Shown piece after piece: positions 29,644 to 56,970 of a stretch of 64,000 nucleotides of DNA (within the stretch, counting starts at the first letter, position 1; each line of letters starts with the position of its first letter). The stretch is taken from the NCBI GenBank assembly GCA_965208835.1, contig OZ242358.1, positions 1,152,001 to 1,216,000 of the forward strand, in the 5' to 3' direction. Source of the DNA: Candidatus Latescibacterota bacterium (GTDB lineage Bacteria; Latescibacterota; UBA2968; GCA-2709665). The notes under the pieces were generated by a model that made no database searches, was not told the DNA's origin, and saw nothing but the letters and a program-made list of their open reading frames with translations. Both the position numbers and the translations under genes were made by a program.

Positions 29644-29680
29644 AAAAAACTCACCTTTTGTTTCCAGGTGGGTTTTTTTA
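29644..29680 (+). terminator. Intrinsic terminator after rpmB
   Basis: AAAAAACTCACCT...AGGTGGGTTTTTTT. Confidence 0.7.
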
Positions 29681-29769
29681 TTTTTATCGACGGCGCGGGC
29701 TCCTGGCGCCAACCCTGCGTGCGTTGTACGGCAATCGGACCGGATATTACCGACGGGAAAGCGCTCTGT

Positions 29770-34491: not shown

Positions 34492-34670
34492 GTTTTCGTG
34501 GACGTTAATTCGGATATGTGCGAGTTAATAAAGGCGATTAGACGGCGGATTACCAGGATACACCAGGTCACTGGACGTAAACTGAAAAAACGTCCTTTTG
34601 GTCGACCTCTACGCCCCATTTCAGGGGTTTTTGTGGCGTCGCCGCGTTGCTGTTTTGTTTCGAATTGGGG
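34479..34670 (+). mobile_element. Repeat element family D, copy 2 (192 bp)
   Basis: CCTTGATTC...GAATTGGGG flanked by perfect CTAA direct repeats; contains the upstream gene's stop; ends 6 nt before the next ATG. Confidence 0.8.
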
Positions 34671-34676
34671 CTAACG

Positions 34677-35788: not shown

Positions 35789-36601
35789 ATGTCTCAACGT
35801 TCATCGTCCCCGCTGGCCGTTGTGACCGGCGCCGCGAGCGGCATCGGAAAGGCCACGGTGGCGCGCTTCGTCGAAGCGGGTTTCTTCGTTGCGGCTCTGG
35901 ACCGTTCGCGGGACGGGCTGGACCGGCTGAAGCAAACGACAATCGGCCCGCACGTCCACGCGTTCCCCTGCGACATGGCCGAGGTGGGGACCCTCACACC
36001 GCTTGCCGGGCGCATCGTTGCGAAGTTCGGGCCGCCGCGGGCGCTGGTGAATAACGCGGGCGTGTGCCTGTACGCGGATATCACCGAAACGACTGACGAG
36101 ATGTGGGAAACCTCGCTGAACACCAATCTCGTCGGCGCATCGGCGCTCATCCGCGGGTTCGTACCCGGTATGAAGGGCGTGGAGGGGGCGGCGATCGTAA
36201 ACGTGGCTTCGCGCAACGCCCTGTCGAGCAGCCCGCGCGCGGCGACCTATGACGCCGCAAAGGCGGCGCTGCTGGCGCTCACGCGCACGCTGGCCGTGGA
36301 ACTGGGCGGCGATGACATCCGCGTGAACGCGGTGCTGCCGGGGTTTGTCGACACGCCGATTCACGGGGACCTGCTTGAAGACCGGGTTTTCGTGGAGAAC
36401 TACCTCAGGCTGATACCGCTCAACCGGATTGGCAGCCCCGCGGACATCGCCAACATCATCTTCTTCCTGGCGTCGGACGCGGCCGCGTTCGTCACCGGTC
36501 AGGGCATCGTGGCGGACGGAGGGCAGATGTCCGGCCAGAACTACGTCAAGGTGTTCGGAGAACGGGAGTCATTCCGGGCTCGCCAGGAACCGGAAACATA
36601 G
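35789..36601 (+). CDS. SDR family oxidoreductase
   Basis: TGAASGIG, NNAG, YDAAK, RVNAVLPG, VTGQGIVADGG. Confidence 0.95.
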   Translation: MSQRSSSPLAVVTGAASGIGKATVARFVEAGFFVAALDRSRDGLDRLKQTTIGPHVHAFPCDMAEVGTLTPLAGRIVAKFGPPRALVNNAGVCLYADITETTDEMWETSLNTNLVGASALIRGFVPGMKGVEGAAIVNVASRNALSSSPRAATYDAAKAALLALTRTLAVELGGDDIRVNAVLPGFVDTPIHGDLLEDRVFVENYLRLIPLNRIGSPADIANIIFFLASDAAAFVTGQGIVADGGQMSGQNYVKVFGERESFRARQEPET

Positions 36602-36641
36602 ACTGGATACCGGAAATGGTGTTTTTCACAGGAGGTGGGAG

Positions 36642-40748: not shown

Positions 40749-41322
40749 ATACGTGTTCAATTGCCTTGCGTCGAAAGCCATCCTGAGTTCGCCCTCGGTC
40801 CGCCAGCGTTCGGACGGTGATCAGGGCAGCCGCCGTGATGCGTGAAAGTTGCGACTGTTCGAATGGCGGCGGCTAAGGCCGTTGGCCTGCGTCCGTGGCA
40901 GTCAGGGATGATCACGTCTGGCGTACTGCCCGGTTCAAATCGACACAAAACGCTAAATTTCATCAAAAAATCATCATATAGATGCTCGAATTCAATGATA
41001 GTTCAACGATTTGTCGTTATCTTAAGAATGCCGGGGCACGAAAAGATCGAATCGCGACTTATGAGAAAAAAAGAATTCCTGAAGCGCATTGCACGTATAC
41101 CGCCTCCACGAATGTCGGCTGTTGTTCTCCGCTGCAGGCACACAAATCAACCGGAGTGCGTAACGGAAGGATGTTCAAAGACCGCGTCTTCAATTGGCAT
41201 CACCGGTAGACTACAATTAAGTGAAGGTTCGATCCGACGCTAGAGTACGAGATCTCTGAAGGGGGAAAACCATCCGTAGTCACCTTCGTGAACCCGCAGA
41301 TATCGAAAGGAGAACCGTTATA

Positions 41323-43176
41323 ATGAGATTTCGAACACCGCACGCTTCGGCAACCATGATTGCCGTTGCCGGCCTGCTCGTGCTGGCCTGCGTCTGTACC
41401 AATGCGGCTCCCGCCCTCGCAGCGTGTCCGCTTCCTCCCGGCGTTACGCCTCCTGATAACCCCGGTGTGACGGCGCGACAGGTCGTAGACGGCAGCGCGA
41501 GCCTGGAGGAATTCGCGCTGGCCGCGAGAGATTTCTACAGGAGCGAGTCCCGGGGCCAAGCGACACTTGAACGAGCGGCATACCTCGGATGTCTCACCAG
41601 GCAGGACGATGGAGTCTGGCGTTCCGGTTCCACGTATATCGTGAGCCTGACGCCCGACGGAAGGGTGTTCATTCACGCTAAGGAGATGGCATTATCGGGC
41701 AGGTTGCTTAACCCCTTGGTTTATGGAGCGATCCTTTCTGGCTTGGGCGTATCCTCAGCCGATCTGGCCAACATGGCCTCACCGGACCCTGCTACCGCCG
41801 CCCGGGCATTTGGAGCTGTGATGGGCGTGTTGATGCAAGAGCCGGACGGCCCATTCGATGCGACCACACCTGTTCCTGGCCTGCGACCCGGCATACCAGG
41901 CGCCTCAGGCCATGCAAGCGTCTACTTCTCACTCAATTTCAAGAGCCCGATCGTGATACTCGCCGGTTTCGATCTCAATGAAACTCACGTGACTGAAGAA
42001 GACATCGATTTCGGCGACCCGTCCGTTACCGCCGAGGACGTGGTGGACCGCGGGACTTTGAAGGCCTTCGTCACGGAGGCGATGAATTACTTTCGCGCAG
42101 CCTACGAATCTGGAGGAATAAGTGCTATCTCGAAGGTCAGGACAGCCTTTCGGGATCCGAATGGGCCCTGGAGACACGGTTCGGTGTATCTCTACATCCT
42201 GGATCGCACCAGCAACACAATTCTGCTTCACGGCGCGTTTCCTAATAGATTCGAGCTACAGCCTCTGGTAGCGACTGTTCGCGATGTCGTGAGCGGACAT
42301 CTCGTTCTGCCGCAGGTAATCGAAGCGGCGGCCGGCAGCAGGGAAGGCGGCTTCGTGGAGTATTACTTTGACGACCCCAATGACGAAACCGACAGAGCCG
42401 ACATCCCGAAGGTGGGATACGCACGCGAGTTCACCGGTGAAATCCAACGGCCGGACGGAAGCGTTGTCCCAACTCACTATGTTATTGGGTCAGGTTTCTA
42501 CGGACGCGCTGCCGATGCTGCGACCGGTCCCGGCACGGTCGTGGAGGCCGCGGTGCTGGGCAACGCCGTCGAGGGGCTGGACGTGGCGTTTTCCCGCGCT
42601 ATTGCCGGTCGCCAGTCCGACTACGCCTGGAGTGCCGTCACCGATGCTGCCGGCCTTTTCACCCTGACGATCACCAGCAAGCATGGCGTGAGCGGTTACT
42701 ATCGTGCCCGGGCCACCAAACCCGACGGCGAGGTCGTGGGCCGCTGGAGCAGCATTCCCCTTAATGTCGATCAACGGCAGGTGTTGGAACTGACGTTGGG
42801 CGGCGGCGCTCGAGTTGTGCGGGTCCAGCCGCTGGCGGCATCCAGTCCTGAGGCAGCAGCCAAACCGGCGTTCTCGGCCGAGGCCGTGCCGGAGGCCAGC
42901 GGTCTGTCGCCCAATTCACCCAACCCGTTCAACAGCGCCACGCTGATCACGTACCATTTGTCGAGCCCGGGGCCGGTGACGCTGGTGATCTTCAACGTGC
43001 TGGGTCAGCCCGTAAGGACGCTGGTGGACGAGACCCGCGGGGCGGGCACGTATCATGTCAGGTGGGACGCGCGCGACGACGGCGGCGGCGGCGCGTTGCT
43101 GTCGACCGGGGTGTATATCGCCCGCCTGAACTATCCCGGCGGTGTATCGACGCAACGGCTTCTCTACCTCAAGTAA
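41323..43176 (+). CDS. Secreted twin Cache-like domain protein with T9SS/FlgD-type C-terminal domain, array copy 1
   Basis: Signal peptide; CPLPPG; two repeats (VTAxxV.....L..F...W..GS.Y...L....H); second repeat GPWRHGSVYLYILD...HGAFP...EGGFVEYYFDDP...KVGYAR...IGSGFY is sCache_2-like; C-terminus PNSPNPFNSAT...NVLGQPVRTLVD...WDARDD..STGVY..RL. Confidence 0.85.
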   Translation: MRFRTPHASATMIAVAGLLVLACVCTNAAPALAACPLPPGVTPPDNPGVTARQVVDGSASLEEFALAARDFYRSESRGQATLERAAYLGCLTRQDDGVWRSGSTYIVSLTPDGRVFIHAKEMALSGRLLNPLVYGAILSGLGVSSADLANMASPDPATAARAFGAVMGVLMQEPDGPFDATTPVPGLRPGIPGASGHASVYFSLNFKSPIVILAGFDLNETHVTEEDIDFGDPSVTAEDVVDRGTLKAFVTEAMNYFRAAYESGGISAISKVRTAFRDPNGPWRHGSVYLYILDRTSNTILLHGAFPNRFELQPLVATVRDVVSGHLVLPQVIEAAAGSREGGFVEYYFDDPNDETDRADIPKVGYAREFTGEIQRPDGSVVPTHYVIGSGFYGRAADAATGPGTVVEAAVLGNAVEGLDVAFSRAIAGRQSDYAWSAVTDAAGLFTLTITSKHGVSGYYRARATKPDGEVVGRWSSIPLNVDQRQVLELTLGGGARVVRVQPLAASSPEAAAKPAFSAEAVPEASGLSPNSPNPFNSATLITYHLSSPGPVTLVIFNVLGQPVRTLVDETRGAGTYHVRWDARDDGGGGALLSTGVYIARLNYPGGVSTQRLLYLK

Positions 43177-43270
43177 CGCGAGAGCAAATTTAAAACTGCT
43201 TCTCAGAAAGAGGACAACCGTCCCACGTCACCCTGGTGAACCCGTTTTTCCTGGAAGGAGAATCGCTGAG

Positions 43271-45118
43271 ATGAAGATTCGAACATTGTTCACGTCGGCA
43301 TCCATGATTCCTGTTGTCGGGCTGCTCGCGCTGGCCAGCGTGCTTTCCACCGCACACCATGCAGAGGCGCAGGATCCTTGCCCGCTTCCTCCCGGTGTGA
43401 CTGCCCCGCCGGACCCGGCTGTGACGGCGCAACAGGTGGAAGAAGGCAGCGCCAGCCTGACCGAATTCGGACTGTCCACGAGAGACGCGTTCAGGAATCG
43501 CAGCCATGCGGAAGCGGTAACGAGCTTCGGGCAAATATCCTACTTCGGATGTCTCGTCAGGCGGGAGAACGGGCCGTGGCGCTCCGGTTCCACTTACGTC
43601 GTGATGTTGACGCCCAACGGCAGGGTGTTACTTCACTCGAAGGAAATGGCATTATCGGGCGGGCTGCTCAATCCCGCCATTTACGGAGCAATCCTCGCTT
43701 CGTTGGGCGTGTCCCTGTCGGATCTTGCCAATCTGGCGTCCCCGGATCCTGCTACCGCCGCCCAGGCGTTCGGCGCGGTCATGGCAGTTTTGTCGCAGGA
43801 ACCGGACGGCGTATTCGATGCGACCATCTCGATTCCGGGACGAACGCCAGGCATTCCGGGCGCCTCCGGCCATGCCAGCGCCTATGTCTCGGGCAGTGTA
43901 CGGCAGCCGTTCATCCTGCTCACCGGATTCGATCTCCAACGAATTCACCTGGCGCAGGAAGAGATCGACTACGGAGACCCGGCCGTTACGGCCATGGACG
44001 TGATGGACCGCGAATCCCTGAAGGCTTTCGTCAACGAAGCAGGACGGTACTGTATCGGACTCCAGGGGAGAGACGATATTGACAGAGCCAAGATTGCTCT
44101 GCGGGATCCCAACGGGCCCTGGAGACACGGTTCGGTGTACCTCTACGTCCTGGACCTTGTTTCGAACATCATCCTGATTCACGGCGCGTTTCCGGACAGA
44201 TTCGAGCTTAGACCCCTGACACCGACCGTCAAGGACGTCGTTACCGGAGAGTTCGTTCTGCCGCAGGTCCTCGAAGCAGCGAGGAGCAACCCGGAAGGCG
44301 GCTTCGTAGAGTATTACTTCGACGATCCCAATGACGACTCCGACAGCGCGGATATCCCAAAGGTCGGCTACGCCCGACAGTTCACAACTGAACTCGATAT
44401 TGGCGGACGGGTCATACCTCTCAATTTCATCATCGGATCGGGTTTTTATGGGCGTGCGGCCGATGTCGTGACGGGTCCCAGTACGGTCGTGGAGGCCACG
44501 GTGCTGGGTGATGCTGTGGAGGGGCTGGACGTTGAATTTTCCCGCGCTATCGCCGGTCGCCGGCCCGACTACGCCTGGAGTACCGTCACCGATGCTGCCG
44601 GCCTTCTAACGTTGACAATCTCCAGCCCGGATGGTGTGAGCGGTTACTACCGGGCCCGTGCCACGAACGCCGATGGCGACGTTATGGGCCGGTGGAGCAG
44701 CATTCCGCTCAATGTCAATCAACGGCAGGTTCTGGAATTGACACTGGGCGGCGGTGCGAGGGTCGTTCGTGTGCAACAGCTGGCTACAGACGCGCCGGTG
44801 GCTGCCGCCAAGCCTTCGTTCGCGGCAGAGGCCGTGCCGGTGGCCAGCGGACTTTCGCCAAATTCGCCGAACCCGTTCAACAGCGCCACGCTGATCACGT
44901 ACCACCTGGCCAGCCCGGGTCCGGCAAAGCTGGTGATCTACAATGTGCTGGGCCAGCCCGTACGGACGCTGGTGGATGAGGCCGGTGGGGCGGGCACCTA
45001 TCATGTGAGGTGGGACGCGCGCGACGACGGCGGCGCGTTGCTGTCGACGGGGGTGTATATCGCACGGCTGAGCTATCCCGGTGGGGTGCATACACAGCGA
45101 CTGCTGTACCTGAAATAG
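43271..45118 (+). CDS. Secreted twin Cache-like protein, array copy 2
   Basis: Paralog of 41323-43176; start MKIRTLFTSAS after GGAG RBS. Confidence 0.85.
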   Translation: MKIRTLFTSASMIPVVGLLALASVLSTAHHAEAQDPCPLPPGVTAPPDPAVTAQQVEEGSASLTEFGLSTRDAFRNRSHAEAVTSFGQISYFGCLVRRENGPWRSGSTYVVMLTPNGRVLLHSKEMALSGGLLNPAIYGAILASLGVSLSDLANLASPDPATAAQAFGAVMAVLSQEPDGVFDATISIPGRTPGIPGASGHASAYVSGSVRQPFILLTGFDLQRIHLAQEEIDYGDPAVTAMDVMDRESLKAFVNEAGRYCIGLQGRDDIDRAKIALRDPNGPWRHGSVYLYVLDLVSNIILIHGAFPDRFELRPLTPTVKDVVTGEFVLPQVLEAARSNPEGGFVEYYFDDPNDDSDSADIPKVGYARQFTTELDIGGRVIPLNFIIGSGFYGRAADVVTGPSTVVEATVLGDAVEGLDVEFSRAIAGRRPDYAWSTVTDAAGLLTLTISSPDGVSGYYRARATNADGDVMGRWSSIPLNVNQRQVLELTLGGGARVVRVQQLATDAPVAAAKPSFAAEAVPVASGLSPNSPNPFNSATLITYHLASPGPAKLVIYNVLGQPVRTLVDEAGGAGTYHVRWDARDDGGALLSTGVYIARLSYPGGVHTQRLLYLK

Positions 45119-45151
45119 CGTCGAACGGTTGGATAGATTGCCTTATCCCGG

Positions 45152-45218
45152 AGAACCCGTTTGGAATTGCCCCATTCAGCCTTTAGTTCGAGGCGTGCGG
45201 GGATTTCAGACGGGTTCT
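45152..45218 (+). terminator. Conserved ~66-nt 3' hairpin of array unit (after copy 2)
   Basis: AGAACCCGTTTGGAA...TTTCAGACGGGTTCT plus T-run; homologous hairpins after copies 3-6. Confidence 0.7.
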
Positions 45219-45423
45219 TTTTTCGTGGCGGACACTCACTGAAAAAGCCTGATAACCAACAGGACCTGCTTGACCACGGTTTCCTTTGCGTGCGCTGAAC
45301 ACGGATGCTGTCGTGCGACCGCATTGCGAATTTCCAGATTGGGGTGCCGGATCCAGGAACTTCCGGCGGTCAGTTTGGCAACATCGGTACAATTCAGGAA
45401 GTATCGTAGACGGTATTTTTCGA

Positions 45424-45452
45424 TTGCATGACGGATGGAATGGTCTTAACAT
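45424..45452 (+). promoter_or_regulatory. Conserved sigma70 promoter of array copy 3
   Basis: TTGCAT-N17-TAACAT; the same motif occurs at equivalent positions before copies 4, 5 and 6. Confidence 0.75.
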
Positions 45453-45558
45453 GCGCGTCTGCAAGATTCGGTCCGTAGCGACAGTCTCATTTCTCAGAGC
45501 GAGGACAACCAGCCGCATTCACGCTAGAGAGCTTGTCTTTACGTGAGGGAGAACCGTC

Positions 45559-47403
45559 ATGACGAAAGTTCGAACACTGTTCACTTCGGCATCCATTATT
45601 CCTGTTGTCAGCCTGTTGGTACTGGCCGCCGTCTCTGCCCAGGCGCCTCCCGCCCTGGCATATTGTCCACCCCCACCCGGCGTGACTACCCCCGAGGAAC
45701 CGAGCGTGACGGCGCAGCAGGTGGAAGACGGAAGCGCAAGCCTGAAGGACTTCGCGCTGGCCTCGAGGGAACGATTTGTTATGCAGATCCAGACGGCTGA
45801 GAATCTGGGACAAGTGGTATACTATGGATGTCTCTTCCGGCAAGAGGGGAGCTTTTGGCATTCCGGTTCCACCTACCTCGTGATTCTGAGGGCCGATGGC
45901 AGTATTCTGATTCACGCGAAGAACATGGCATTGGCGAGCAGACGACTCAACCCCCTTGTCTATGCAGAGATCCTTTCTTCGTTGGGATTACCCTCAACCG
46001 TTCTGGGCAACCTGGCATCTCCCGATTCTGCTGTTGCCGCCCAGGCTAGTGCCGATGTCTTTGATATGTTGTCGCAAGGACCGGATGCCGCATTCGATGC
46101 GACCACCCCTATACCAGGCCTGCGACCCGGCATACCGGGTGCCTCCGGCTATGCCGCCGCATATTGGTCGGACTTCTTTAGAGGCCCGCTTGTGATGGTA
46201 GCCGGTTTCGAACTCGATGATACTCACCTGATTGAAGAAGAGATCGATCACATTACACCGGCCGTTTCCGCCAGGGACGTGGTGGATCGAGAAACCCTGA
46301 AGGCCTTCGTCACGGAGGCCGGGGAGTACTGTCTCGAACTTAGGAAAACCGGCAATTTCCCCGGTGGGATAGCCAGGATCGCCCTGCGGGATCCGAACGG
46401 GCCCTGGAGACACGGTTCCGTGTACCTCTATGTCTTGGATACGACCAGCAACATAATCCAGATACACGCTGCGTTTCCGAACAGATACGAGCTTCGACCT
46501 CTGATAGCCACCGTCCGGGACGCGGTTACCGGAAAACTCATACTTCCGCAGGTCATCGAAGCGGCGAAGAGTGACCCGGAGGGCGGCTTCGTGGAGTATT
46601 ACTTTGACGATCCCAATGACGACACCGACAGTGCCGATATCCCCAAGGTGGGATACGCACGCGAGTTCAAGACGAAAACCGAGTTAGGTGGAAGGGTAGT
46701 CCCATACAACTTCATTATCGGGTCGGGTTTTTATGGGCGCGCGCCCGAAGTCGCGACGGGTCCCAGAACGGTCGTGGAGGCCACGGTGCTGGGCGATGCG
46801 GTGGAAGGGCTGGACGTCGAGTTTTCCCGCGCCATCGCCGGCCGCGTTTCCAACTACGCGTGGAGTGCCGTCACCGATGCTGCAGGCCTTCTGTCGCTGA
46901 CCATCTCCGGCGCGGATGGCGTGAGCGGTTACTATCGAGCCCGCGCCACGAACGTGGATGGTGAGGTCGTCGGTCAGTGGAGCAGCATTCCTCTGAACGA
47001 AGGCCACCGACAGACCCTGGAACTAACGCTGGGCGGGGGCGCGAGGGTCGTACGGGTCACGTCGCTGGATGCGGCAGAGCCGGTGGCTGCCGCCAAGCCG
47101 GTTTTCGAAGCTGAGACTGTGCCGGAAGCCAGCGGTCTTTCACCTAATTCGCCCAATCCATTCAACAGCGCCACCGTGATCACCTACCACCTGTCCAGCG
47201 CGGGCCCGGTGCAACTGGTGATCTACAATGTGCTGGGTCAGCCCGTACGGACGCTCATGGACGAGTCCAGCGCGGCGGGCACTTATAAGGTCAGGTGGGA
47301 CGCACGTGACGAGTTTGGCGTCTCTCTGTCGACGGGAGTCTATATCGCACGCCTGAGCTATCCCGGTGGTGCGCAGACTCAGCGGCTGCTGTACCTCAAA
47401 TAG
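45559..47403 (+). CDS. Secreted twin Cache-like protein, array copy 3
   Basis: Intact paralog, 614 aa, same domain order. Confidence 0.85.
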   Translation: MTKVRTLFTSASIIPVVSLLVLAAVSAQAPPALAYCPPPPGVTTPEEPSVTAQQVEDGSASLKDFALASRERFVMQIQTAENLGQVVYYGCLFRQEGSFWHSGSTYLVILRADGSILIHAKNMALASRRLNPLVYAEILSSLGLPSTVLGNLASPDSAVAAQASADVFDMLSQGPDAAFDATTPIPGLRPGIPGASGYAAAYWSDFFRGPLVMVAGFELDDTHLIEEEIDHITPAVSARDVVDRETLKAFVTEAGEYCLELRKTGNFPGGIARIALRDPNGPWRHGSVYLYVLDTTSNIIQIHAAFPNRYELRPLIATVRDAVTGKLILPQVIEAAKSDPEGGFVEYYFDDPNDDTDSADIPKVGYAREFKTKTELGGRVVPYNFIIGSGFYGRAPEVATGPRTVVEATVLGDAVEGLDVEFSRAIAGRVSNYAWSAVTDAAGLLSLTISGADGVSGYYRARATNVDGEVVGQWSSIPLNEGHRQTLELTLGGGARVVRVTSLDAAEPVAAAKPVFEAETVPEASGLSPNSPNPFNSATVITYHLSSAGPVQLVIYNVLGQPVRTLMDESSAAGTYKVRWDARDEFGVSLSTGVYIARLSYPGGAQTQRLLYLK

Positions 47404-47435
47404 CGCCAGAAGGTCAGGCGGGAAACCCTCTCCTT

Positions 47436-47501
47436 AGAACCCGTCCGGAAACACCCGATAGGCCTTGATTTCAAGGCCATAGGGGTTCTCAGACGGGTTC
47501 T
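47436..47501 (+). terminator. Conserved 3' hairpin (after copy 3)
   Basis: AGAACCCGTCCGGAAA...GGCCTTGA-TT-TCAAGGCC...AGACGGGTTCT. Confidence 0.65.
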
Positions 47502-47629
47502 ATTCGAATCAACCGAAGACCTGCTCCGGTCCAGAATACGACATAAGTAACAGGCAATCAACACGTTAAAGAAATCGTGGCCCGACGAGAAGGCAATAAT
47601 AACAAGGCGATCGTCGGCGGTTTTTTTAT

Positions 47630-47658
47630 TTGCATGCCGGGCAGAATTCCTTTAACAT
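47630..47658 (+). promoter_or_regulatory. Conserved sigma70 promoter of array copy 4
   Basis: TTGCAT-N17-TAACAT. Confidence 0.75.
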
Positions 47659-47763
47659 GCCAACTTGGGCGCACGGTCCGAAGCGTTTACCCGATATCTC
47701 AAAAAGAGGACAACCAGTAGTTGCCACGTCAGTGAGCGATTTTTCTCGAGAGGGAGATCCGTT

Positions 47764-49572
47764 ATGAAGAAAGCTCGAACACCGTTAATATCGGCATCCA
47801 TAATTCCTGTTGTCAGCCTCTTGGCGCTCGTCGCCGTCTTTGCCAACGCGGGTTCCTCCGTTGCTCAGGATCGGGGAGAATGCGTACTCCCTGAAGGCGT
47901 GACCCCTCCGGCGGACCCAAGCGTGACCGCGCAACAGGTGGAAGACGGAAGCGCTACCTTGAAAGAATTCGGGTTGGAAGCAAGAAATCGATTCAGTCAA
48001 GGGGCAGGTTCTCGTGAACTGCAACTGTACGTCGGTTGCGTCCTGCGGCAAGAGGGGAGCCATTTGAACTCCGGTTCCACATATCTTGTGCAATTGACGC
48101 CTGATGGAAGGGTGTTTATTCACGCGAAAAATATGGCGCTGTCGGGAAGGTTGCTCAATCGCCTGATTTATGGAACTATTCTTCGAGCATTGGAAATCGA
48201 TTTGGCTGGATTGCAGGACGATCCTGCCGCGTTAACGGCTGCCTTCATTGAGGCTGCAGGCAGGGATGGCGGCGAGTTCAACATGCCTGCTATCCCAGGG
48301 GCTTCAGGCTATGCCGCTGTCTACTTTTCGAGAAATTTCAGACTCCCTATTGTGTTGCTTGCCGGATTCGACCTCAACGAGTCCCACCTGGTCGAAGAGG
48401 AAATCGACTATGGTATTCCCGCCGTTACTGCAAGTGAAGTGGTGGACAGGTAAACTCTAAAAGCCTTTGTTACCCAGGCAGGGGAGGCTTTTCTCAATCA
48501 GCAGAAGGGAGGCGACCTGTCCGCGACCTCGAAGGCCAGAGTGGCCTTGAGAGACCCGAATGGGCCCTGGAGACACGGTTCCGTATACCTCTATGTCCTG
48601 GATCTAACAAGCAACATCATCCTGTTCCACGGCGCGTTTCCTGACCTGTACGAACTGCGGCCTCTGATAGCGACCGTCCGGGACGTGGTTACCGGAGAGC
48701 TTGTTTTGCCGCAGGTCATCGAGGCGGCGAAAAGCAGCCCGGATGGCGGCTTCGTGGAGTATTACTTTGACGATCCCACTGACGACACGGACAGCGCAGA
48801 TATCCCCAAAGTGGGTTATGCCCGTCAGTTTACCGGTCAACGCGAGAGAGAAGACGGGACTGTACTTCCTATAAATTTCATCGTCGGGTCAGGATTTTAC
48901 GGACGCGCGCCCGATGTTGTCGCAACGGGTCCCAGTACGGTCGTTGAGGCCACGGTACTGGGGGACGCGGTGGAGGGACTGGACGTCGAGTTTTCCCGCG
49001 CCATCGCCGGACGTCAGTCCGAGTACGCGTGGAGCGCCGTCACCGATGCTGCCGGCATTCTGTCGCTGACCATCTCCAGTGCGGATGGGGTGAGCGGTTA
49101 CTATCGTGCCCGGGCCACCAATGCCGATGGCGAGGTCGTGGGCCGGTGGAGCAGTATACCTCTGACCGAAGGCCGCCGCCAGGCCCTGGAACTGACGCTG
49201 GGCGGGGGCGCGAAGGTCGTACGGGTCGCGTCGCTGTCTGCGGCGGAGCTGGTGGCTGCCGCCAAGCCGGTTTTCGAAGCTGAGACTGTGCCGGAAGCCA
49301 GCGGTCTTTCACCTAATTCGCCCAATCCATTCAACAGCGCCACCGTGATCGCCTACCACCTGTCCAGCGAGGGTCCGGTGCAACTGGTGATCTATAATGT
49401 GCTGGGTCAGCCCGTACGGACGCTGGTGGATGAGACCCGCGGGGCGGGCAGGTATCAAGTCAAGTGGGACGCGCGCGACGACGGTGGCGCGTTGCTGTCA
49501 ACCGGAGTGTATATTGCCCGCCTGAGCTATCCTGGCGGCGTGCAGACGCAACGGCTGCTCTACCTGAAATAG
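47764..49572 (+). pseudogene. Array copy 4, interrupted by an in-frame TAA
   Basis: ORFs 47665-48453 and 48541-49572 are in the same frame; TAA at 48451-48453 replaces the GAA(Glu) of VVDRE seen in paralogs. Confidence 0.85.
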
Positions 49573-49604
49573 CGCCAGTCATCGAAGCAGAACGTGATAG
49601 TTTG

Positions 49605-49671
49605 AGAACCCGTTTGGAAACGCCCCATATAGCCTTGAGTACGAGGCTTGCGGTGTTTACGGACGGGTTCT
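49605..49671 (+). terminator. Conserved 3' hairpin (after copy 4)
   Basis: AGAACCCGTTTGGAAAC...GTTTACGGACGGGTTCT. Confidence 0.65.
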
Positions 49672-49805
49672 TCCTTTTGGGGTGTGAAGGCGGACGATCG
49701 TACCGAAAACCTTTAGTTGCGGCAACGGGTCAAGGGCCGCCAGGCGGTCATGCCGTCCCGATCGTGGACAAAGACGCAAAGACGCAAGGGATCGTGACAT
49801 TTTCG

Positions 49806-49834
49806 TTGCATAAAGAGTCGAACCCACTTAATTT
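49806..49834 (+). promoter_or_regulatory. Conserved sigma70 promoter of array copy 5
   Basis: TTGCAT-N17-TAATTT. Confidence 0.7.
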
Positions 49835-49938
49835 ACACATTCGTGCGATTCGGTCCCAGGCGACAGCCTCATATCACAGAGAGGGTAGGCAGCCGCAGAT
49901 ACGCTACTGAGCCCGGCTCTCCAGGAGGGAGAACCGTC

Positions 49939-51789
49939 ATGAAGGAAATTCGAACATCGTCCACTTCGGCATCCATAATTCCTGTTGTCGGCCTGCTGAT
50001 GCTGGCCGGCGTCTTTTTCGATCCGGGTCCCGCCGCGGCACAGGGGCTGGGAGATTGCGTACTCCCTGAAGGCGCGAATCCACCCACTGAACCGCATACG
50101 ACGGCGCAGGACGTTGAGAACGGCAGCGCAACCCTGAAGGACTTCGCGCTGGCCGCGAGAGATCAGTTCAAGGTGGGATCTCCAACTCCGGAAGAAGCGT
50201 TCTACTTCGGATGTCTCGTCAGGCAGGAGGGGAGCCATTGGCGTTCCGGTTCCACCTACATCGTGTCAATGCTGGCCGACGGAAGGGTGTTCGTTCACGC
50301 AAAGGATATGGCACTGTCGGGCAGGCTGCTCAACCCTGTAATATACGGAACGATCCTCGCCGCGCTGGGCGTATCTCCAGGCGATCTGGCCAATTTGGCT
50401 TCTCCGGATCCCGCTGTCGCCGCCCAGGCTTTCGGCGCCGTCATGGGCACATTGATGCAGGAACCGGATGGCGCATTCGATGCGACCGCCCCGATTCCAG
50501 GTCTGTCGCCCGGTATACCGGGCGCCTCCGGCTATGCCGCCGTATATTTATCGGGCAATTTCGCGCTTCCGGTTGTAATGCTCGTCGGATTTGACATCAA
50601 TGAAACTCACTTGGCTAAAGAAGACATCGATTACGGCGCCCCTGCCGTCGCCGCCGAGGACGTGGTGGACCGGGAATCCCTGAAGGCCTTCGTCACGCAA
50701 GCGGGAGAATTCATCCTCGAACTCCAGAAGACCGGCGATCTGGCCGCTTCCTCGAAACTCAGGATCGCCCTGCGGGACGCGGACGGACCCTGGAGACACG
50801 GTTCCGTTTACCTTTACGTCCTGGACCTTACCAGCAACATCATCCTGTTCCACGGCGCGTTTCCGGACAGATTCGAGCTGCGGCCTCTTGTCGCGACCGT
50901 CAAGGACGCGGTTACCGGTCAGCTCGTTCTGCCGCAGGTCATCGAGGCGGCGAAGAGCAGCCCGGAAGGCGGCTTCGTGGAGTATTATTTCGACGATCCC
51001 ACCGACGACACGGACAGTGCCGATATTCCCAAGGTGGGCTACGCCCGCGAGTACCACGGGGAATTTGACACAGGCCAACGCATACTCAGACTCAACTTCA
51101 TTGTCGGTTCAGGATTCTACGGGCGCCCGGCCGATGTCGGGACAGGTCCCAGCACGGTCGTGGATGCTACGGTGCTGGGCGACGCGGTGGAGGGGCTGGA
51201 CGTAGACTTTTCTCGCGCCATCGCCGGGCGCCAGTCCGAATACGCGTGGAGTGCGGTCACCGATGCTGCCGGCCTGTTCACCCTGACGATCTCGGGTGAA
51301 AATGACGTGACCGGTTACTACCGGGCCCGGGCCACGAACGCCGACGGAGAGGTCGTGGCCCGGTGGAGCAGCATACCTCTGAATGAGGGCAGGCGCCAGG
51401 TTCTCGAACTGACGCTGGGCGGAGGTGCGAGGGTCGTACGGGTCCGAGAGCTGACTACCGCCGAGCCGGTGGCTGCTGCCAAACCGGTTTTCGAAGCCGA
51501 GACCGTGCCGGAAGCCAGTGGTCTGTCGCCGAATTCGCCCAACCCGTTCAACAGCGCCACCGTGATCACTTACCGTATTTCCAGCGCGGGTCCCGTGAAA
51601 CTGGTGATCTACAATGTCCTGGGTCAGCCTGTACGGACGCTGGTGGATGAGTCCCGCGGGGCGGGCAGCTATCAGGTCAGGTGGGATGCGAAAGACGACG
51701 GTGGCGCGACGCTGTCGACCGGGGTGTATATCGCCCACCTGAGCTATCCCGGCGGTGCGCAGAACCAGCGACTGCTGTATCTCAAATAA
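49939..51789 (+). CDS. Secreted twin Cache-like protein, array copy 5
   Basis: Intact paralog; start MKEIRTSSTSAS after GGAG RBS. Confidence 0.85.
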   Translation: MKEIRTSSTSASIIPVVGLLMLAGVFFDPGPAAAQGLGDCVLPEGANPPTEPHTTAQDVENGSATLKDFALAARDQFKVGSPTPEEAFYFGCLVRQEGSHWRSGSTYIVSMLADGRVFVHAKDMALSGRLLNPVIYGTILAALGVSPGDLANLASPDPAVAAQAFGAVMGTLMQEPDGAFDATAPIPGLSPGIPGASGYAAVYLSGNFALPVVMLVGFDINETHLAKEDIDYGAPAVAAEDVVDRESLKAFVTQAGEFILELQKTGDLAASSKLRIALRDADGPWRHGSVYLYVLDLTSNIILFHGAFPDRFELRPLVATVKDAVTGQLVLPQVIEAAKSSPEGGFVEYYFDDPTDDTDSADIPKVGYAREYHGEFDTGQRILRLNFIVGSGFYGRPADVGTGPSTVVDATVLGDAVEGLDVDFSRAIAGRQSEYAWSAVTDAAGLFTLTISGENDVTGYYRARATNADGEVVARWSSIPLNEGRRQVLELTLGGGARVVRVRELTTAEPVAAAKPVFEAETVPEASGLSPNSPNPFNSATVITYRISSAGPVKLVIYNVLGQPVRTLVDESRGAGSYQVRWDAKDDGGATLSTGVYIAHLSYPGGAQNQRLLYLK

Positions 51790-51943
51790 TGTCCTGTCCC
51801 AAAAATATCTCACCATTCGGTCGCCGATTCATCCCGTCTCGCTGCGTTGCCTTCGCTCGCCGACCTTACGCAGGTCGGTGGCGCCTTGCGAGCCGGGCGA
51901 CTCGACGGCCGAATTCAGGCAACCTATTTCTGGGACAGAACAG
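51789..51943. mobile_element. MITE family C (155 bp) inserted in the stop codon of copy 5
   Basis: TIRs TGTCCTGTCCCAAAAATA / TATTTCTGGGACAGAACA, flanked by TA duplication; paralogs show the empty site AAA-TA-GCGCCA. Confidence 0.85.
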
Positions 51944-51978
51944 TAGCGCCACACGGTAAGGCAGGAAGGGTTTTTCTG

Positions 51979-52044
51979 AGAACCCGTCCGGAAACACCCG
52001 AATAGCGTTGAACACGAGGGTTGCGGGTTCTTCGGGCGGGTTCT
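51979..52044 (+). terminator. Conserved 3' hairpin (after copy 5)
   Basis: AGAACCCGTCCGGA...TTCGGGCGGGTTCT. Confidence 0.65.
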
Positions 52045-52169
52045 CTTCGATTCAACCGAATACCTCCGTCGGCTCAGGACACTAGGTAGGACGTATTCAA
52101 CACGCAGAAGAAAGCCCCGCCCGAATTGAAGGCATTGATTGCAAACTGATCGCAGAAAGTCTTTTTAAT

Positions 52170-52198
52170 TTGCATAACCGGTGAATTTTAATTAATAT
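52170..52198 (+). promoter_or_regulatory. Conserved sigma70 promoter of array copy 6
   Basis: TTGCAT-N17-TAATAT. Confidence 0.75.
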
Positions 52199-52304
52199 CC
52201 CCGTTCGTATGATCGGTCCCGGGCGGTGGGCCGATGTTTCAGAGAGAAGAAAATCAGCCGTGGTCGCCGTTGCGGCCTTGTCTTTAACGGGAGGGAGAAC
52301 TGAT

Positions 52305-54169
52305 ATGATAAAGTTTCGAACACTGTTCGCGCAGGCAAACGTGAATCCGGTTGTCGGTCTGCTCGTTCTGGCCGTCGTCTTGTCATTCGTACGTCCGGCC
52401 GTGGCAGTTTGTCCGCTTCCCCCGGGCGTGACGGCCCCCGACGACCCCGCTGTGACCGCGCAGCAGGTGGTAGACGGCAGCGCCACCCTCAAGGAGTTTT
52501 CTCTGGCAGTAAGAGAGCGGTCCAGAGAATACGCCAAGGGGGCCGCGGCCACGGAACAAGCCGTATATATCGGATGCATCATAAGGCTGGACGATGGGAT
52601 CTGGCGTTCGGGTTCCACCTACATCGTGAGCCTGACGCCTGACGGCAGGATATACATTCACGCGAAGGACATGTCGTTGACGGGCAGGTTGCTAAACCCG
52701 GTGGTTTATGGAGCGATCCTTTCAGCGCTGGGCGTATCCCTATCTGATCTGGCGAATCTGGCGTCTCCCGATCCTGCGACTGCCGCACAGGCTTTCGGCG
52801 CTGTCATGGGCACATTGGCGCAGGAACCTGACGGCGCGTTCGATGCGACCGGTCCTGTTCCGGGTCTATCGCCAGGTATACCGGGCGCTTCGGGCCATGC
52901 CGCCGTCTATATCGAGCCCAATGTAGGGGGGGCTCCGATTGTAATGCTCATGGGTTTCGATCTCAATGAATCTCACCTGGTCCCATTAGCGATGAAGTCA
53001 TCGATTACGGCGACCCGGCCGTCACTGCCAGGGACGTGGTGGATCGCGAATCCCTGAAGGCCTTTGTTACCCAGGCTGGAAATTACTTTCTTGAACTTCA
53101 GAATTCCGGGGATTTCGCCGCTATTGCGAAAGCCAGGATCGCCTTGCGGGATCCGAACGGCCCGTGGAGACACGGTTCCGTGTACCTCTACGTTCTGGAT
53201 CTTGTCAGCAACATCATCATATTTCACGCGGCGTTCCCTGACAGATACGAGTATCGTCCTCTGATACCGACCGTCACCGACGCCGTGACAGGCGAGTTCA
53301 TCCTGCCGCAGGTCATCGAGGCGGCGAAGGGCAGCCCTGATGGCGGCTTCGTGGAGTATTACTTCGACGATCCCACCGACGACACCGACAGCGCCGATAT
53401 CCCCAAGGTGGGATACGCCCGTGAGTTTGCCGCTGAAATTCGGCGGCCGGACGGAAGCACAATCCCGGCCGACTTCATCGTCGGTTCGGGCTTCTACGGG
53501 CGCGCGGGCGAGGTTGCCACGACGGATCCCAGCACGGTCGTGGAGGCCACCGTGCAGGGTGACGCGGTAGAGGGGTTGGACGTGGCATTTTCCCGCGCCA
53601 TTGCCGGGCGCGGGTCCGATTATGCCTGGAGCGCCGTCACCGATCCTGCCGGCCTGTTCTCCCTGACCATCTCCAGCGCGGATGGCGTGAGTGGTTACTT
53701 TCGGGCCCGGGCCACCAACGCCGATGGCGAGGTCGTGGGCCGTTGGAGCAGCATACCCCTGAATGAAGGCCGCCGCCAGGTTCTGGAACTGACGTTGGGC
53801 GGCAACGCACGGGTCGTAGGTGTCGAAGCCCTGGCCTCATCCAGGTCTGAGGCCGCCGCCAAGCCGGCGTTTGCGGTCGAGGCCGTGCCGGAAGCCAGCG
53901 GTCTGGCGCCCAATTCGCCGAACCCATTCAACAGCGCCACGCTGATCACCTACCATCTGTCCGGCGCGGGTCCTGTGAAGCTGGTGATCTACAATGTGTT
54001 GGGCCAGCCCGTACGGACGCTTGTGGATGAGTCCCGTGCGGCGGGCACGTATAAGGTCAAATGGGATGCGCGCGACGAGGGTGGCGCGTTACTGTCGACA
54101 GGTGTGTATATCGCCCATCTGAGCTATCCCGGCGGTGTGCAGTCGCAACGGCTGCTGTACCTCAAGTAG
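52305..54169 (+). pseudogene. Array copy 6, frameshifted in the interdomain linker
   Basis: Frame breaks at CTGGTCCCATTAGC (~52982-52984); adding one base restores HLVPISDEVIDYGDPAVTARDVVDRE, continuous with ORF 53036-54169. Confidence 0.8.
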
Positions 54170-54200
54170 CACCAGAGGGAAGGCAGCAAGCGATATCCTG

Positions 54201-54266
54201 AGAACCCGTTCGGAATCACCCCGTGAGCCATGCGCCCTGGGCTTGCACGGATTTCGAACGGGTTCT
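54201..54266 (+). terminator. Conserved 3' hairpin (after copy 6)
   Basis: AGAACCCGTTCGGAATC...GATTTCGAACGGGTTCT plus T-run. Confidence 0.7.
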
Positions 54267-54675
54267 TTTTGCGTTGGGCCCGGTATCTTCTGACTCCCCG
54301 GCTTGACCGTCTGTGTTCCATTTCGAAACCCGCGAGTACGGGTTTGAGCTTGACTTCCGGCCGTTGGGTCGTAATATTGGCCTTGCGGATGAGGGCTCCG
54401 GCCTGCGGGTTTTTTCACGTCGCTGCGGGTTCCCTGGCTGGTTCTACACCATTCCGAAGGTCTGGCAGATTCAGGTTACAAGCGTGCGAGGCGATGACGG
54501 AGGAATCAGCAAACATATAGATTCTGCACCGAAATCGGTTGGTTGTTCTCCACAGATTTTCGTCGAATGCACGCAGTACGGACGGCAGCCTCAGGGGGCT
54601 GCCGTTTCTGTTCAGGTACGCATTGTCCGACGGGTCTGATTCCTGAAATTGCCTTAGGTATTCGAGGAGATTTCA

Positions 54676-55779
54676 TTGGGCGAACCCGTGGTATTGCTTC
54701 GTGAAGGACCGTTGAAATTCCACGTGTTCAGGGGAAGCTCCGTCGAGATGGGCCGGGCTCATGGTTCTCTTGACCCGGAGTTTCTCCGATCGCGGCTGGA
54801 CGAATGGCTGACGTGGCCTCACGATTTCGATCACCCGTATTTTCGGAAGAACATGGCGTTCATGCGGCGCGAGTTTCCGGATTTCATCGAACGCATGGAA
54901 GCTTACGGCGCGGCGGCGGGTATCGACAACTTCGATCACACCTACTATCTGCACATGGTCGACACCGGCCGAGAGCAAGAAGCATGTTCCGCGTTCGGAA
55001 TCCTGCTGAGCGACGATGGGCCGGCCCTGCTGCGAACCTACGACCCTTCTGATTCCACCGGGACGAGCTACTTTGTCAGGGATCGCTTCGTGGCGGCGTT
55101 TCCGGATTGCCGCCCGCACGGATACCTCGGCATGGGCGGGCATCACTTCTGTGTCGTACATACCTCAGTCAACGACGCCGGCCTGCTTACGGGATGGGCT
55201 TCGGGGGCGCCGAAATTCCATTGGCCCGACAACCCGGAACACGTCAATCTCTTTCAGATCACCGGACTCGTGCCACAGCATTGCGGTGACTGCGAGGACG
55301 TGAGGCGGTTTCTCAACGAATACCGGATTTCCGGGCTGAAAGGGCTGACCGGCACGTCCGTGGACGCCAGGGGTAACATACTCGGTATCGAACTGGAATC
55401 TGAGAATATCGCATTTCGCGAACCCGAAAATGACATGGTACTGGAGGTGAACCACTGGCAGCATCCCGACCTCCAGCGCCTGGCACGGAAGAGAAAACCG
55501 GAATTCTGGACGAGCCCCTATTACTACAATTCACAGAACCGCGTGCAGTACGTGGAATACCACCGGGACAGGTTCCTGCGGATGTCCACACTCGAAGAGC
55601 TGATTGACTTTACGTTCGACGTGCACGCTCCCGGTCGAATCCTGCAGATGCCGGACGCCAACATTGCCAACTGGATGACCTCGCATGCGATCTATATGAC
55701 TGCCGCCGACCGGAGAATGCGGGTACACCCGTATCCGCTTGATAAAGACAGATACACCGAAGTCGCATATCTCGGTTGA
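54676..55779 (+). CDS. Peptidase C45 family Ntn hydrolase
   Basis: GSSVEMGRAHG, QEACSAFG nucleophile Cys, VNDAGL, VNHW; TTG start after GAGGAG; similar to 34677-35750. Confidence 0.75.
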   Translation: MGEPVVLLREGPLKFHVFRGSSVEMGRAHGSLDPEFLRSRLDEWLTWPHDFDHPYFRKNMAFMRREFPDFIERMEAYGAAAGIDNFDHTYYLHMVDTGREQEACSAFGILLSDDGPALLRTYDPSDSTGTSYFVRDRFVAAFPDCRPHGYLGMGGHHFCVVHTSVNDAGLLTGWASGAPKFHWPDNPEHVNLFQITGLVPQHCGDCEDVRRFLNEYRISGLKGLTGTSVDARGNILGIELESENIAFREPENDMVLEVNHWQHPDLQRLARKRKPEFWTSPYYYNSQNRVQYVEYHRDRFLRMSTLEELIDFTFDVHAPGRILQMPDANIANWMTSHAIYMTAADRRMRVHPYPLDKDRYTEVAYLG

Positions 55780-55831: not shown

Positions 55832-56164
55832 ATGCTCGAGCCCAGTCCGATCTTCACCAGAGAGATTCTGTATCTGGGCCTTGGCGGCGCCATTGCGGCG
55901 TCATTGGCGGTGATGCGTGCGCGGTTCGTGTGGTGGCCCCTGCATCCTGTCGCGCTTCCCGTCAGCACGATTGCCTATACGGATTGCCTCTTTATCAATG
56001 TCTTTCTGGCCTGGGGAGCAAAGAGCCTGGTGTTGCGGTTTGGTGGCGCCCGGTCCACCCGGCCGTTTTTCATGGGAATCACACTGGGTGAGGCTGTTTG
56101 TACCGGGCTCTGGATTGCCGTGGACTACTTTACGGGGACGGTCTCCAATGCTTTCTTTCCATAA
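55832..56164 (+). pseudogene. C-terminal fragment of a polytopic membrane transporter-like protein (WWPLHP family)
   Basis: RARFVWWPLHPVALP...FLAWGAKSLVLRFGG...RPFFMGITLGE resembles the last helices of large DUF6785/6784-type membrane proteins; no N-terminal part present. Confidence 0.55.
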
Positions 56165-56202
56165 GCGTAGCTGAGGCCGGGTGTACGATACGGAGGGAAG
56201 AT

Positions 56203-56970
56203 ATGAAGTCGGATAGAACAGAGGAAACGGGCGGCGGAGTACCGGCTGTCGAGTTGAATCAGACCTGGGATATGGGACGGCTGGTCGACCTCACCTGTGA
56301 TTACTTCAACGGGATGCCGGTCGACATGACGGGAACCCTGCCTTCGTTTCGGATGCGGGAACTTGACGAAGAGATGGAAGCTCTTTGCAGGGGCCGTGAG
56401 TACCGCAGCTACACGCAGGAAGTCCGGATGTGCGTGCAGGCCGGCAACTACCTGGAAACCGGAGCGCACCTCTATCCGGAAATGGAATCGGTTGCCGACG
56501 TCGGCCTGGAACGGCTGTTCTTGTCCGCGGTGGTGTTGCATATCCCCAGAGGCAAGGATGAAAAAGTGACCGCCGCTGACCTGGGCATTGCTCTTGGAGA
56601 ACTTGGAGAGAAGATCCATCCGGGGGACGCGATTCTGGTCGCCACGGGTTACAACCGGTTCGGCAGCAGTGACGTTCGCTGCGAACTGACGCCACATTTC
56701 AGCTACGACGCGATCGACTGGGCGGTGAGTCGGAAACCTTCGATCCTGGCATCGGACATGGCGAGTTGGCACGATGGGGAGGAAGAACCGAGTTTCTGGC
56801 CCATGCTGATGAGGTCCGGCGTTCTGGTGATCGGATCGCTGATGAACGTGTCGGCGATAACCGTTCACCGCATCCGGTTGATCGCCCTTCCGATGAAAAT
56901 TCGAGGCGCATGCGCGGCGCCCTGCCGGCTGATCGCCGTTCTCCCTTCGTGCGGCGGACGGGCAGGGTAG
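56203..56970 (+). CDS. Cyclase (kynurenine formamidase-like) family protein with altered metal motif
   Basis: LVDLT, QAGNYLETGAHL at the HxGTHxDxPxH position, PGDAILVATG, LIALPMKIRGACAAPCRLIA. Confidence 0.75.
   Translation: MKSDRTEETGGGVPAVELNQTWDMGRLVDLTCDYFNGMPVDMTGTLPSFRMRELDEEMEALCRGREYRSYTQEVRMCVQAGNYLETGAHLYPEMESVADVGLERLFLSAVVLHIPRGKDEKVTAADLGIALGELGEKIHPGDAILVATGYNRFGSSDVRCELTPHFSYDAIDWAVSRKPSILASDMASWHDGEEEPSFWPMLMRSGVLVIGSLMNVSAITVHRIRLIALPMKIRGACAAPCRLIAVLPSCGGRAG

Follow-up and report, generated by a model that had tools for sequence, protein, structure and literature searches.

Six tandem genes for predicted exported twin-Cache proteins in a Latescibacterota genome as candidate non-signalling surface binders

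The stretch of DNA analysed here, 64,000 nucleotides of contig OZ242358.1 from a Candidatus Latescibacterota bacterium (assembly GCA_965208835.1, positions 1,152,001 to 1,216,000; hereafter the window), carries six paralogous genes, c1 to c6, which follow one another head to tail on the plus strand between positions 41323 and 54169 as single open reading frames (ORFs) or ORF pairs. Each copy is laid out as a signal-peptide-like N-terminus, two sCache_2-like domains (a divergent D1 and a canonical D2), an Ig-like sandwich and a type A tail of the type IX secretion system (T9SS). Tentatively, with a probability of roughly 0.45, we read the array as a set of exported, non-signalling binders, displayed on the surface or secreted, whose twin-Cache module would be a lectin- or adhesin-like device for a carboxylated molecule and would have spread by gene transfer. 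The six genes are read as exported non-signalling binders because all known contexts of the module are surface devices and none of them signals.

Twin-Cache module, pocket and export signals

The module of c3 (residues 30–401, with 79 aligned sequences as input) was modelled by AlphaFold2 (AF2) with a predicted local distance difference test score (pLDDT) of 89.9 and a predicted template modelling score (pTM) of 0.87, and its two halves have the same topology. The best Foldseek matches of this model in the PDB are the sCache_2 sensor domains 4k08, 5g4y and 2qhk/4exo, all at a probability of 1.00, with target template modelling scores of 0.61–0.65 over ~150 columns at 19–22% identity. In addition, profile–profile comparison of D1 with D2 by hhalign (95.5% probability, E 1.4e-8) indicates that the two domains are homologous, so that both the Cache fold and the two repeats per protein, proposed by an initial annotation made from the sequence alone, are borne out. 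Each half owns a pair of N-terminal helices in the AF2 model (residues 33–50 and 54–65 in D1, 215–234 and 241–248 in D2), and from this and the profile match we take the unit to be a tandem of two single Cache domains. A dCache arrangement, in which one long stalk helix is shared by both modules, is ruled out by these separate helices, and a Venus-flytrap periplasmic solute-binding protein was rejected since neither Pfam nor Foldseek matched such a family or fold. When full-length c3 was modelled, the result was good over residues 1–400 and over the tail but poor over the Ig-like part (pLDDT 45–68). The Foldseek matches of that model are dominated by Ig tandems and by the tails of PorZ (5m11; 97 columns, root-mean-square deviation 3.9) and PorU (6za2) and are uninformative on the Cache part, and the module was therefore modelled alone. 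The Cache assignment also agrees with the high sCache_2 scores of relatives reached by phmmer with the module (289.5 bits for P0146 and 212.5 bits for P0192). An ESM Atlas look-up only returned Cache clusters again (scores 0.93–0.94).

The pocket of D2 retains the residues by which a characterized sCache_2 domain holds its ligand. In PscD, according to PMC5062169, Tyr90, His103, Tyr143 and Lys156 form hydrogen bonds with the ligand carboxylate, and three of them, Tyr90, His103 and Lys156, are conserved across the sCache_2 seed. The equivalents of these four residues in c3 are Y289, H303, Y347 and K363, placed by the chain of alignments from c3 D2 to the relative P0192 and from there to 5g4y (P0192 to 5g4y at E 7.5e-9). 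All four are identical in the six copies and show little or no variation across 65 and 79 aligned relatives, and Y291 and F349, which correspond to Trp92 and Trp145, are likewise identical in the six. Throughout the array, D2 has the same residues at its pocket-equivalent positions (Y, Y, H, Y, F and K), and so does D1 (Y, V, H, F, G, A and S), whose next position is split evenly between H and Y, with three copies each. Directly after strand b3 of D2 lies an acidic loop, FDDPxDDTDSAD, which is 88% identical among the copies and absent from the PscD sequence in the alignment; a calcium site on this loop is speculation.

With the sCache_2 domains of chemoreceptors (PscD-SD, 5g4y; Adeh_3718, 4k08; a methyl-accepting chemotaxis protein (MCP) of V. 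parahaemolyticus, 2qhk/4exo) the array proteins have in common the fold, the Tyr/His/Tyr/Lys positions of D2 and a (predicted) extracytoplasmic location. Those domains, however, are flanked by a membrane helix on either side and feed into an MCP signalling domain, whereas the array proteins have no membrane helix after the putative signal peptide and no output, and differ further in their two tandem domains, the three-helix insert of D1, the acidic loop of D2 and the export tail. The arrangement of Cache sensors given in PMC4822843 consists of two transmembrane helices and an output domain, and neither was found here.

As for export, the N-terminus of all six copies has a basic start, a hydrophobic core (Kyte–Doolittle (KD) values up to 2.6) and an Ala-rich end, and by this hydropathy pattern it is a putative signal peptide. 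This segment is the sole strong transmembrane-like stretch, with many consecutive 19-residue windows over threshold; elsewhere, isolated single windows in c2, c5 and c6b barely exceed it (KD 1.61–1.74). At the other end, TIGR04183, the NCBIfam model of the T9SS type A sorting domain, scores 35.1, 35.8 and 31.5 bits in c1, c3 and c5 against a cut-off of 23, and together the two termini support the export signals that had been claimed. The profile check proposed for the family succeeded for this tail (three of the three copies tested) and for FlgD_ig, which is over its cut-off in five of six copies (28.4 bits in c2, against a sub-threshold 21.8 bits in c1), and fell short for PF18962 (15–18.5 bits, cut-off 27) and for most of the Cache matches. 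dCache_2 matches the D2-bearing pieces of all six copies (E 2.2e-7 to 4.2e-4, 20.0–30.7 bits), spanning only profile positions ~80–190 of 298, and no Pfam match covers the N-terminal 230–260 residues.

D1 of c3 begins with the invariant Cys of a CPxPPG motif. The start had been described as Cys-Pro-rich, and a motif C-[PV]-[LP]-P-x-G is indeed present in all six copies, but with one Cys rather than several. This Cys and a second one ~55 residues on are invariant in 79 of 79 aligned relatives and in the six copies, and a disulfide between the two is likely. The region between module and tail, which had been called Ig/carboxypeptidase-regulatory-like, is modelled as a beta-sandwich at the low confidence given above and matches no Pfam family at E<0.05 (Big_1 in c1 only, at E 0.068).

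The absence of a signalling output, also part of the initial annotation, extends from the array to its neighbours and relatives. In a Pfam search of 35 neighbour ORFs of the window, which turned up metabolic and transport genes, neither the array nor the genes next to it showed a kinase, MCP or nucleotide-cyclase domain (PF04199 at 56098–56970 is a 'Putative cyclase' by Pfam name only), and kinase, MCP, HAMP, GGDEF/EAL and cyclase domains are found in none of 66 relatives (29 + 37 representatives of at least 380 residues). The output might instead be encoded elsewhere, with the ligand-loaded protein docking on a separate membrane receptor in the manner of LuxP; solute-binding proteins are known to stimulate receptors, and a histidine kinase and a response regulator do exist in the window. 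We nevertheless consider an accessory sensor very improbable, because this pair, the only one in the window (8842–12704), is ~30 kb off and stands among phosphate genes, no receptor gene is kept beside the family, and a T9SS tail or the autotransporter barrel of some relatives would put the module outside the outer membrane, far from inner-membrane receptors.

Relatives, anchors and gene transfer

An exhaustive phmmer search with the module against 1.84 billion representatives (clusters at 50% identity) retrieved 426 proteins at E<=1e-3, of which 257 remain at 1e-10 and 108 at 1e-30, and a word-index search over 8000 scored candidates gave 1429 proteins at E<=1e-3. Among the matches listed from the latter, 120 in number, identity is 57–91%, and the only six with a name are each called 'T9SS type A sorting domain-containing protein' and come from metagenome-assembled genomes (MAGs) of Gemmatimonadota. 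T9SS tails are found in some of the phmmer relatives, and many others end in different C-termini. The Autotransporter family PF03797, the type Va barrel that is absent from all six window copies, reaches at least 26 bits in 9 of 29 and 1 of 37 representatives and in 8 of 19 locus proteins. Some relatives are chains of three to seven Cache stretches, up to 2142 residues long; P0006 and P0009 place two whole modules ahead of one Ig-tail, and in L015 (Opitutales) a module 85% identical to that of c3 stands in front of leucine-rich repeats (LRR).

A scan of genomes matched 279 stretches, of which 248 were confirmed and the best 80, forming 67 loci, retained. The near-complete modules of these loci lie in 99 ORFs, which by end motif comprise 53 with the tail signature, 28 ending in W or F, five multi-Cache proteins, three ending in GAYIPA and ten that are other or truncated. 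The closest loci (88–91% identical to the c3 module) are titled Candidatus Latescibacterota, some of them Gemmatimonadota, and one, L035, matches the flanks of the window at 93–94% nucleotide identity. At 56–63% identity the titles are Alphaproteobacteria, Paracoccaceae, Rhodospirillales, Binatia, Thermodesulfobacteriota, Deltaproteobacteria and Gammaproteobacteria, as well as Terriglobia/Bryobacterales, Opitutales, Longimicrobiales and, on one 2.6-kb contig, Dehalococcoidia; the phylum labels of MAGs with the module include Acidobacteriota and Verrucomicrobiota. Short contigs may be mis-binned, but several loci lie on single chromosomes of 4–6 Mb. The taxonomic survey that the initial annotation had called for therefore finds the module in MAGs of many labels and on other surface anchors, but the labels themselves are inconsistent.

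In a quick IQ-TREE tree of 103 module sequences, whose starred branches are to be taken with caution, anchor type changes 21 times against a minimum of 4, and the starred branches force at least eight changes for the T9SS type and at least seven for the autotransporter type. Autotransporter forms with alphaproteobacterial labels nest in a T9SS clade (99, starred), as do the autotransporter forms of L014 and L021, and the LRR form nests in the clade of c3 (100, starred). Judged from these sequences, the module is a portable cassette that occurs across lineages on differing surface anchors. We regard as unlikely the bolder proposal that it is a horizontally mobile cassette for a host- or matrix-derived carboxylated ligand, captured by co-resident bacteria of at least five or six phylum-level lineages, each with its own display device (T9SS tail, autotransporter barrel, LRR or multi-module chain), as the 'Cache lectin' of one holobiont or biofilm; if true, this would be the first bacterial chemoreceptor sensor fold turned adhesin. 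The isolate labels and the mixture of taxa seem to resemble those of MAG sets from sponge microbiomes, but literature look-ups, PMC13224822 included, did not bear this out. Family genes range from 7.5 GC points below their flanks to 7.6 above, without a consistent trend, and GC content was not used as evidence.

No gene partner is conserved across lineages among 709 neighbour ORFs of the 67 loci, in which clusters track close synteny only. A second type of locus occurs in genomes of ~51% GC (L001, L003, L008, L009, L011, L012, L024, L037 and L048), where family genes stand beside glutamine synthetase, a sigma-70 factor, an NtrC-type activator and PTS-EIIA(Ntr)-like and GlnD-like genes and are 4–8 GC points over their flanks.

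Further C-termini were seen among the relatives. Acidobacteriota-labelled forms (L047 9755–12544, L057 8859–11744, three genes of L062, and P0129) have a C-terminal extension of ~490 residues that ends in RTGDGAYIPARE, matches nothing in Pfam or NCBIfam and may be another anchor. In P0130, P0131, P0133, P0215 and P0225 the C-terminus consists of an 'FTTLPVIP' motif and then an acidic tail, again with no NCBIfam match, and in P0139 and P0143 of a hydrophobic stretch and Arg-rich residues (JDVT-CTERM of NCBIfam scores a sub-threshold 18.4 bits against 27 in P0143). P0142 has a transposase fragment (HTH_21, DDE_Tnp_ISL3) ahead of the module, which could mark the junction with an insertion sequence or be an artefact of gene calling.

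Paralogue divergence and candidate functions

The six proteins are 66.7–73.3% identical in pairwise comparison, and mean identity rises along the chain from 0.59 in D1 and 0.71 in D2 to 0.80 and 0.84 in the Ig-like part and tail, respectively. The lowest values within D1 are those of helices a1 (0.41) and a2 (0.46), strand b5 (0.44) and the lid helices (0.47–0.58). Since divergence falls on the D1 helices and the pocket residues are invariant save for the one H/Y position of D1, different pockets or ligands among the paralogues are not supported by the sequences, and neither is the diversified ligand repertoire of the initial annotation.

The same is true of its amplified family. The intact paralogues each have a closer orthologue in related MAG loci (87–88% for c1, 94% for c2, with L002:7487-9475, and 86–87% for c3), and over c1 to c3 the locus L002 is 89.4% identical at the nucleotide level across 6.2 kb. 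Orthologues are thus 86–94% identical and paralogues 67–73%, from which it follows that the paralogues are older than the split from the related MAGs, and recent amplification is rejected. The ratio of nonsynonymous to synonymous substitution (dN/dS) between orthologues is 0.05–0.09 in D2 and 0.18–0.41 in D1. By these comparisons the array is old and maintained, with its paralogue lineages under purifying selection. As a separate observation, synonymous divergence (dS) between paralogues drops from 1.28 in D1 to 0.50–0.66 in the Ig-like part and tail, and dS between orthologues is highest in the Ig-like part (0.53–0.70), a pattern suggestive of gene conversion between the array copies in their 3′ parts.

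Not all six paralogues are whole, as had been assumed when the tandem array, which itself stands, was first described: c1, c2, c3 and c5 are intact, and c4 and c6 are broken. In c4 an in-frame TAA (48451–48453) replaces the Glu codon of the VVDRE motif and 16 residues are missing from the lid region of D1 in the paralogue alignment; its orthologues L029:7766-9673 and L006:11958-13937 are uninterrupted. In c6 the frame shifts near 52983, where the interval from the GFD to the VVDRE codons is 98 nucleotides instead of the 90 found in c5 and in six orthologous copies (L006, L002, L029, L035, L027 and L030). The array could therefore be decaying and without present function, as the two disrupted copies and the split copies in four related loci might suggest. 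We think this highly improbable, given that four copies are intact, orthologues are kept in several MAGs with the low dN/dS of D2 noted above, and the module is found in 426 representative clusters. A side observation concerns the D1–D2 linker, in which c6 (52953–53050) and the L016 orthologue (15200–15290) have acquired independent frameshifting insertions of 8 nucleotides and 1 nucleotide, respectively; both halves remain open in each, the six other orthologous copies being in frame, and the insertions could reflect a mutational hotspot, a tolerated split or decay.

Under the preferred reading, exported binders, Sec would carry the protein across the inner membrane and a T9SS across the outer one, after which the tail would be removed and the protein would stay on the surface or be released. 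D2 would bind a carboxylate-bearing ligand, possibly with calcium on the acidic loop, and the variable surface of D1 would tune what else is contacted. The module would then recognise a carboxylated molecule on a host, a matrix or a neighbouring cell rather than act as a sensor, and would have spread by gene transfer among co-resident bacteria, each lineage fitting its own surface-display anchor. We infer that an adhesin or lectin is to be preferred over capture or sequestration of small molecules, given that the module occurs in autotransporter, LRR and multi-module contexts and lacks transporter partners, that copies turn over and that the outer surface of D1 varies.

In nutrient capture, Cache modules tethered at the surface would bind small organic acids or amino acids and hand these on to transporters of the outer membrane, much as SusD-like proteins supply TonB-dependent transporters. 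The pocket residues of D2 are those of C2/C3-carboxylate sensors, and a TonB-dependent receptor (Plug + CarboxypepD_reg, 1060 residues) lies upstream of the array in five related loci (L006, L016, L027, L029 and L030). This role is doubtful all the same, because the window has no such receptor beside the array, no transporter is kept beside the gene across lineages, the LRR fusions and chains of four to seven modules fit avidity binding better, and small carboxylates usually cross porins without a surface binder. SusD-like proteins resemble the array proteins as surface-exposed, non-catalytic binders that occur in paralogous sets. However, they have an all-helical tetratricopeptide-repeat-like fold, a lipoprotein anchor and an obligate pairing with SusC, and none of these is seen in the array.

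Released proteins could also take a diffusible carboxylated signal or metabolite, of host or competitor origin, out of circulation. A sensor-type pocket kept without any output, the presence of export signals and the occurrence of the module in several lineages would all suit such interference, which we judge distinctly unlikely in view of the cost of taking up small, abundant acids stoichiometrically and of the autotransporter-anchored and multi-module forms, which point to cell-bound display.

Several results weigh against the array proteins being exported, adhesin- or lectin-like binders. Known sCache_2 pockets bind small free C2–C3 carboxylates, a property that suits scavenging or sequestration no less than adhesion, and a small-carboxylate pocket as such argues against the adhesin/lectin preference. 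The pocket mapping is transitive through a distant relative, P0192, and is made at the level of alignments. The fold assignment is exposed in that only c3 (one of six) passes the 26.5-bit cut-off of dCache_2, with c1 at 23.7 bits, no copy passes that of sCache_2 (12–17 bits against 25), the Foldseek E-values of the module are 1.3e-3 to 4e-3 with none at or below 1e-3, phmmer of c3 against PDB chains finds no match at E up to 10, and the family profile finds no Cache structure in the PDB, matching, through the tail, nothing but a FlgD-like chain (E 0.059). The export route would need a T9SS, yet no PorV, PorU, SprA/Sov or GldKLMN is matched among the 35 neighbour ORFs of the window, and the literature search found no paper on T9SS in Latescibacteria. 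Three locus proteins that end in W, those of L022, L039 and L064, do not match PF03797, and the match in L034 is sub-threshold. Five loci with common neighbours are labelled variously Binatia, Thermodesulfobacteriota or Deltaproteobacteria, so the count of phyla is to some degree overstated. Finally, beyond the two broken copies among the six of the array, family genes are split in L007, L008, L016 and L030.

The comparison with known exported proteins gives a similar mixture of likeness and difference. T9SS type A cargo of the Fibrobacteres–Chlorobi–Bacteroidetes (FCB) group shares with the array proteins a C-terminal sorting domain of ~85 residues, alongside an N-terminal signal peptide that is putative in the array, and the array tail structurally resembles those of PorZ and PorU; what differs is that the cargo here is a sensor fold, of which we found no description in the literature searched. 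The likeness to type Va autotransporter adhesins lies with relatives of the module, which are passengers ahead of PF03797 barrels; the window proteins lack such a barrel. Known type Va passengers are mostly beta-helices and not Cache domains. The alpha2-delta subunits of animal calcium channels and Cachd1 are alike in being extracellular Cache-fold proteins that bind ligands or partners and do not signal themselves, and Foldseek returns them weakly (7vfs, 8if3 and 9eq6, probability 0.14–0.33); they are, however, eukaryotic, of the dCache_1 type with a VWA domain, and without detectable sequence relationship to the array proteins.

Among the extracellular sensor modules of bacteria, Cache domains occur most often. 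PMC4822843 states that they had been identified exclusively in proteins with output domains, the SMP_2 family excepted, and literature searches on Cache domains with autotransporters, with T9SS or Gemmatimonadota, or secreted without an output found no such proteins described. A large family of 426 clusters, whose exported sensor fold keeps its carboxylate residues but has no output and is swapped among T9SS cargo, passengers of autotransporters and LRR proteins, would be an example of a sensor pocket put to new use in binding at the surface. Its module, compact at ~365 residues and well-folding, would lend itself to direct ligand screening, and the family would single out a set of uncultured lineages that have a surface trait in common through gene transfer.

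Coordinates and neighbouring genes

The start of each copy was set at the ATG that follows a conserved upstream leader; for c2 this is the ATG just after the conserved GGAGAA, and the ORF as listed begins at 43142. About 100 nucleotides of the leaders are conserved, with a Shine–Dalgarno-like GGGAGAAC at the end, 6–8 bases ahead of the start. Their consensus gave no convincing structure (−3.87 kcal/mol), and no Rfam family was found anywhere in the window, leaders included. Promoter-like sites (6, against 4.8 ± 2.2 in shuffled sequences) and terminator-like sites (9, against 13.8 ± 3.6) are not over chance.

Table 1. Positions in the window of the six array genes, their leaders and the domains of c3
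Feature	Position	Strand	Basis
c1, intact, 617 residues (signal peptide, D1, D2, Ig-like domain, T9SS C-terminal domain)	41323–43176	+	ORF and translation
c2, intact, 615 residues	43271–45118	+	ORF, translation and leader alignment
c3, intact, 614 residues; query for models and searches	45559–47403	+	ORF and translation; dCache_2 30.7 bits
c3 D1, residues 35–229; divergent sCache_2-like, three-helix insert between b2 and b3	45661–46245	+	AF2 secondary structure; hhalign to D2
c3 D2, residues 230–398; canonical sCache_2-like, acidic loop FDDPNDDTDSAD after b3	46246–46752	+	Pfam, alignments, Foldseek, residue mapping
c3 Ig-like beta-sandwich, residues 399–508	46753–47082	+	AF2 strands only, pLDDT 45–68
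c3 T9SS type A C-terminal sorting domain, residues 530–614, with stop codon	47146–47403	+	TIGR04183 35.8 bits
c4, disrupted	47764–49572	+	In-frame TAA and 16-residue deletion in D1
c5, intact, 616 residues	49939–51789	+	ORF and translation
c6, disrupted	52305–54169	+	8-nucleotide insertion in D1–D2 linker
Conserved leaders, one per paralogue	41203–41322, 43151–43270, 45439–45558, 47644–47763, 49819–49938, 52185–52304	+	Alignment, 68% mean column identity

The phosphate cluster that holds the kinase pair of the window extends over 1220–12704 and encodes a PstS-like binding protein, a porin O/P, a CHAD protein, a ParA-like ATPase, polyphosphate kinase 1, a HAMP-PAS histidine kinase, a beta-lactamase-fold protein and an OmpR-type regulator. 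At 29668–31902 a protein of 744 residues joins the middle and C domains of a Mur ligase to a subsequent RimK-type ATP-grasp domain, presumably the reverse of the domain order of cyanophycin synthetase.

The flanks of the array include a ceramidase-like gene. Just upstream, at 36429–38822, lies the gene for a 797-residue fusion of a calcineurin-like metallophosphatase with a PQQ_2/BamB-like beta-propeller. Two paralogous genes of the C45/AAT family (acyl-CoA:6-APA acyltransferase-like) flank the region, at 34647–35750 and 54676–55779, and the downstream one is 84–87% identical to the genes that follow the array in L006, L030 and L054.

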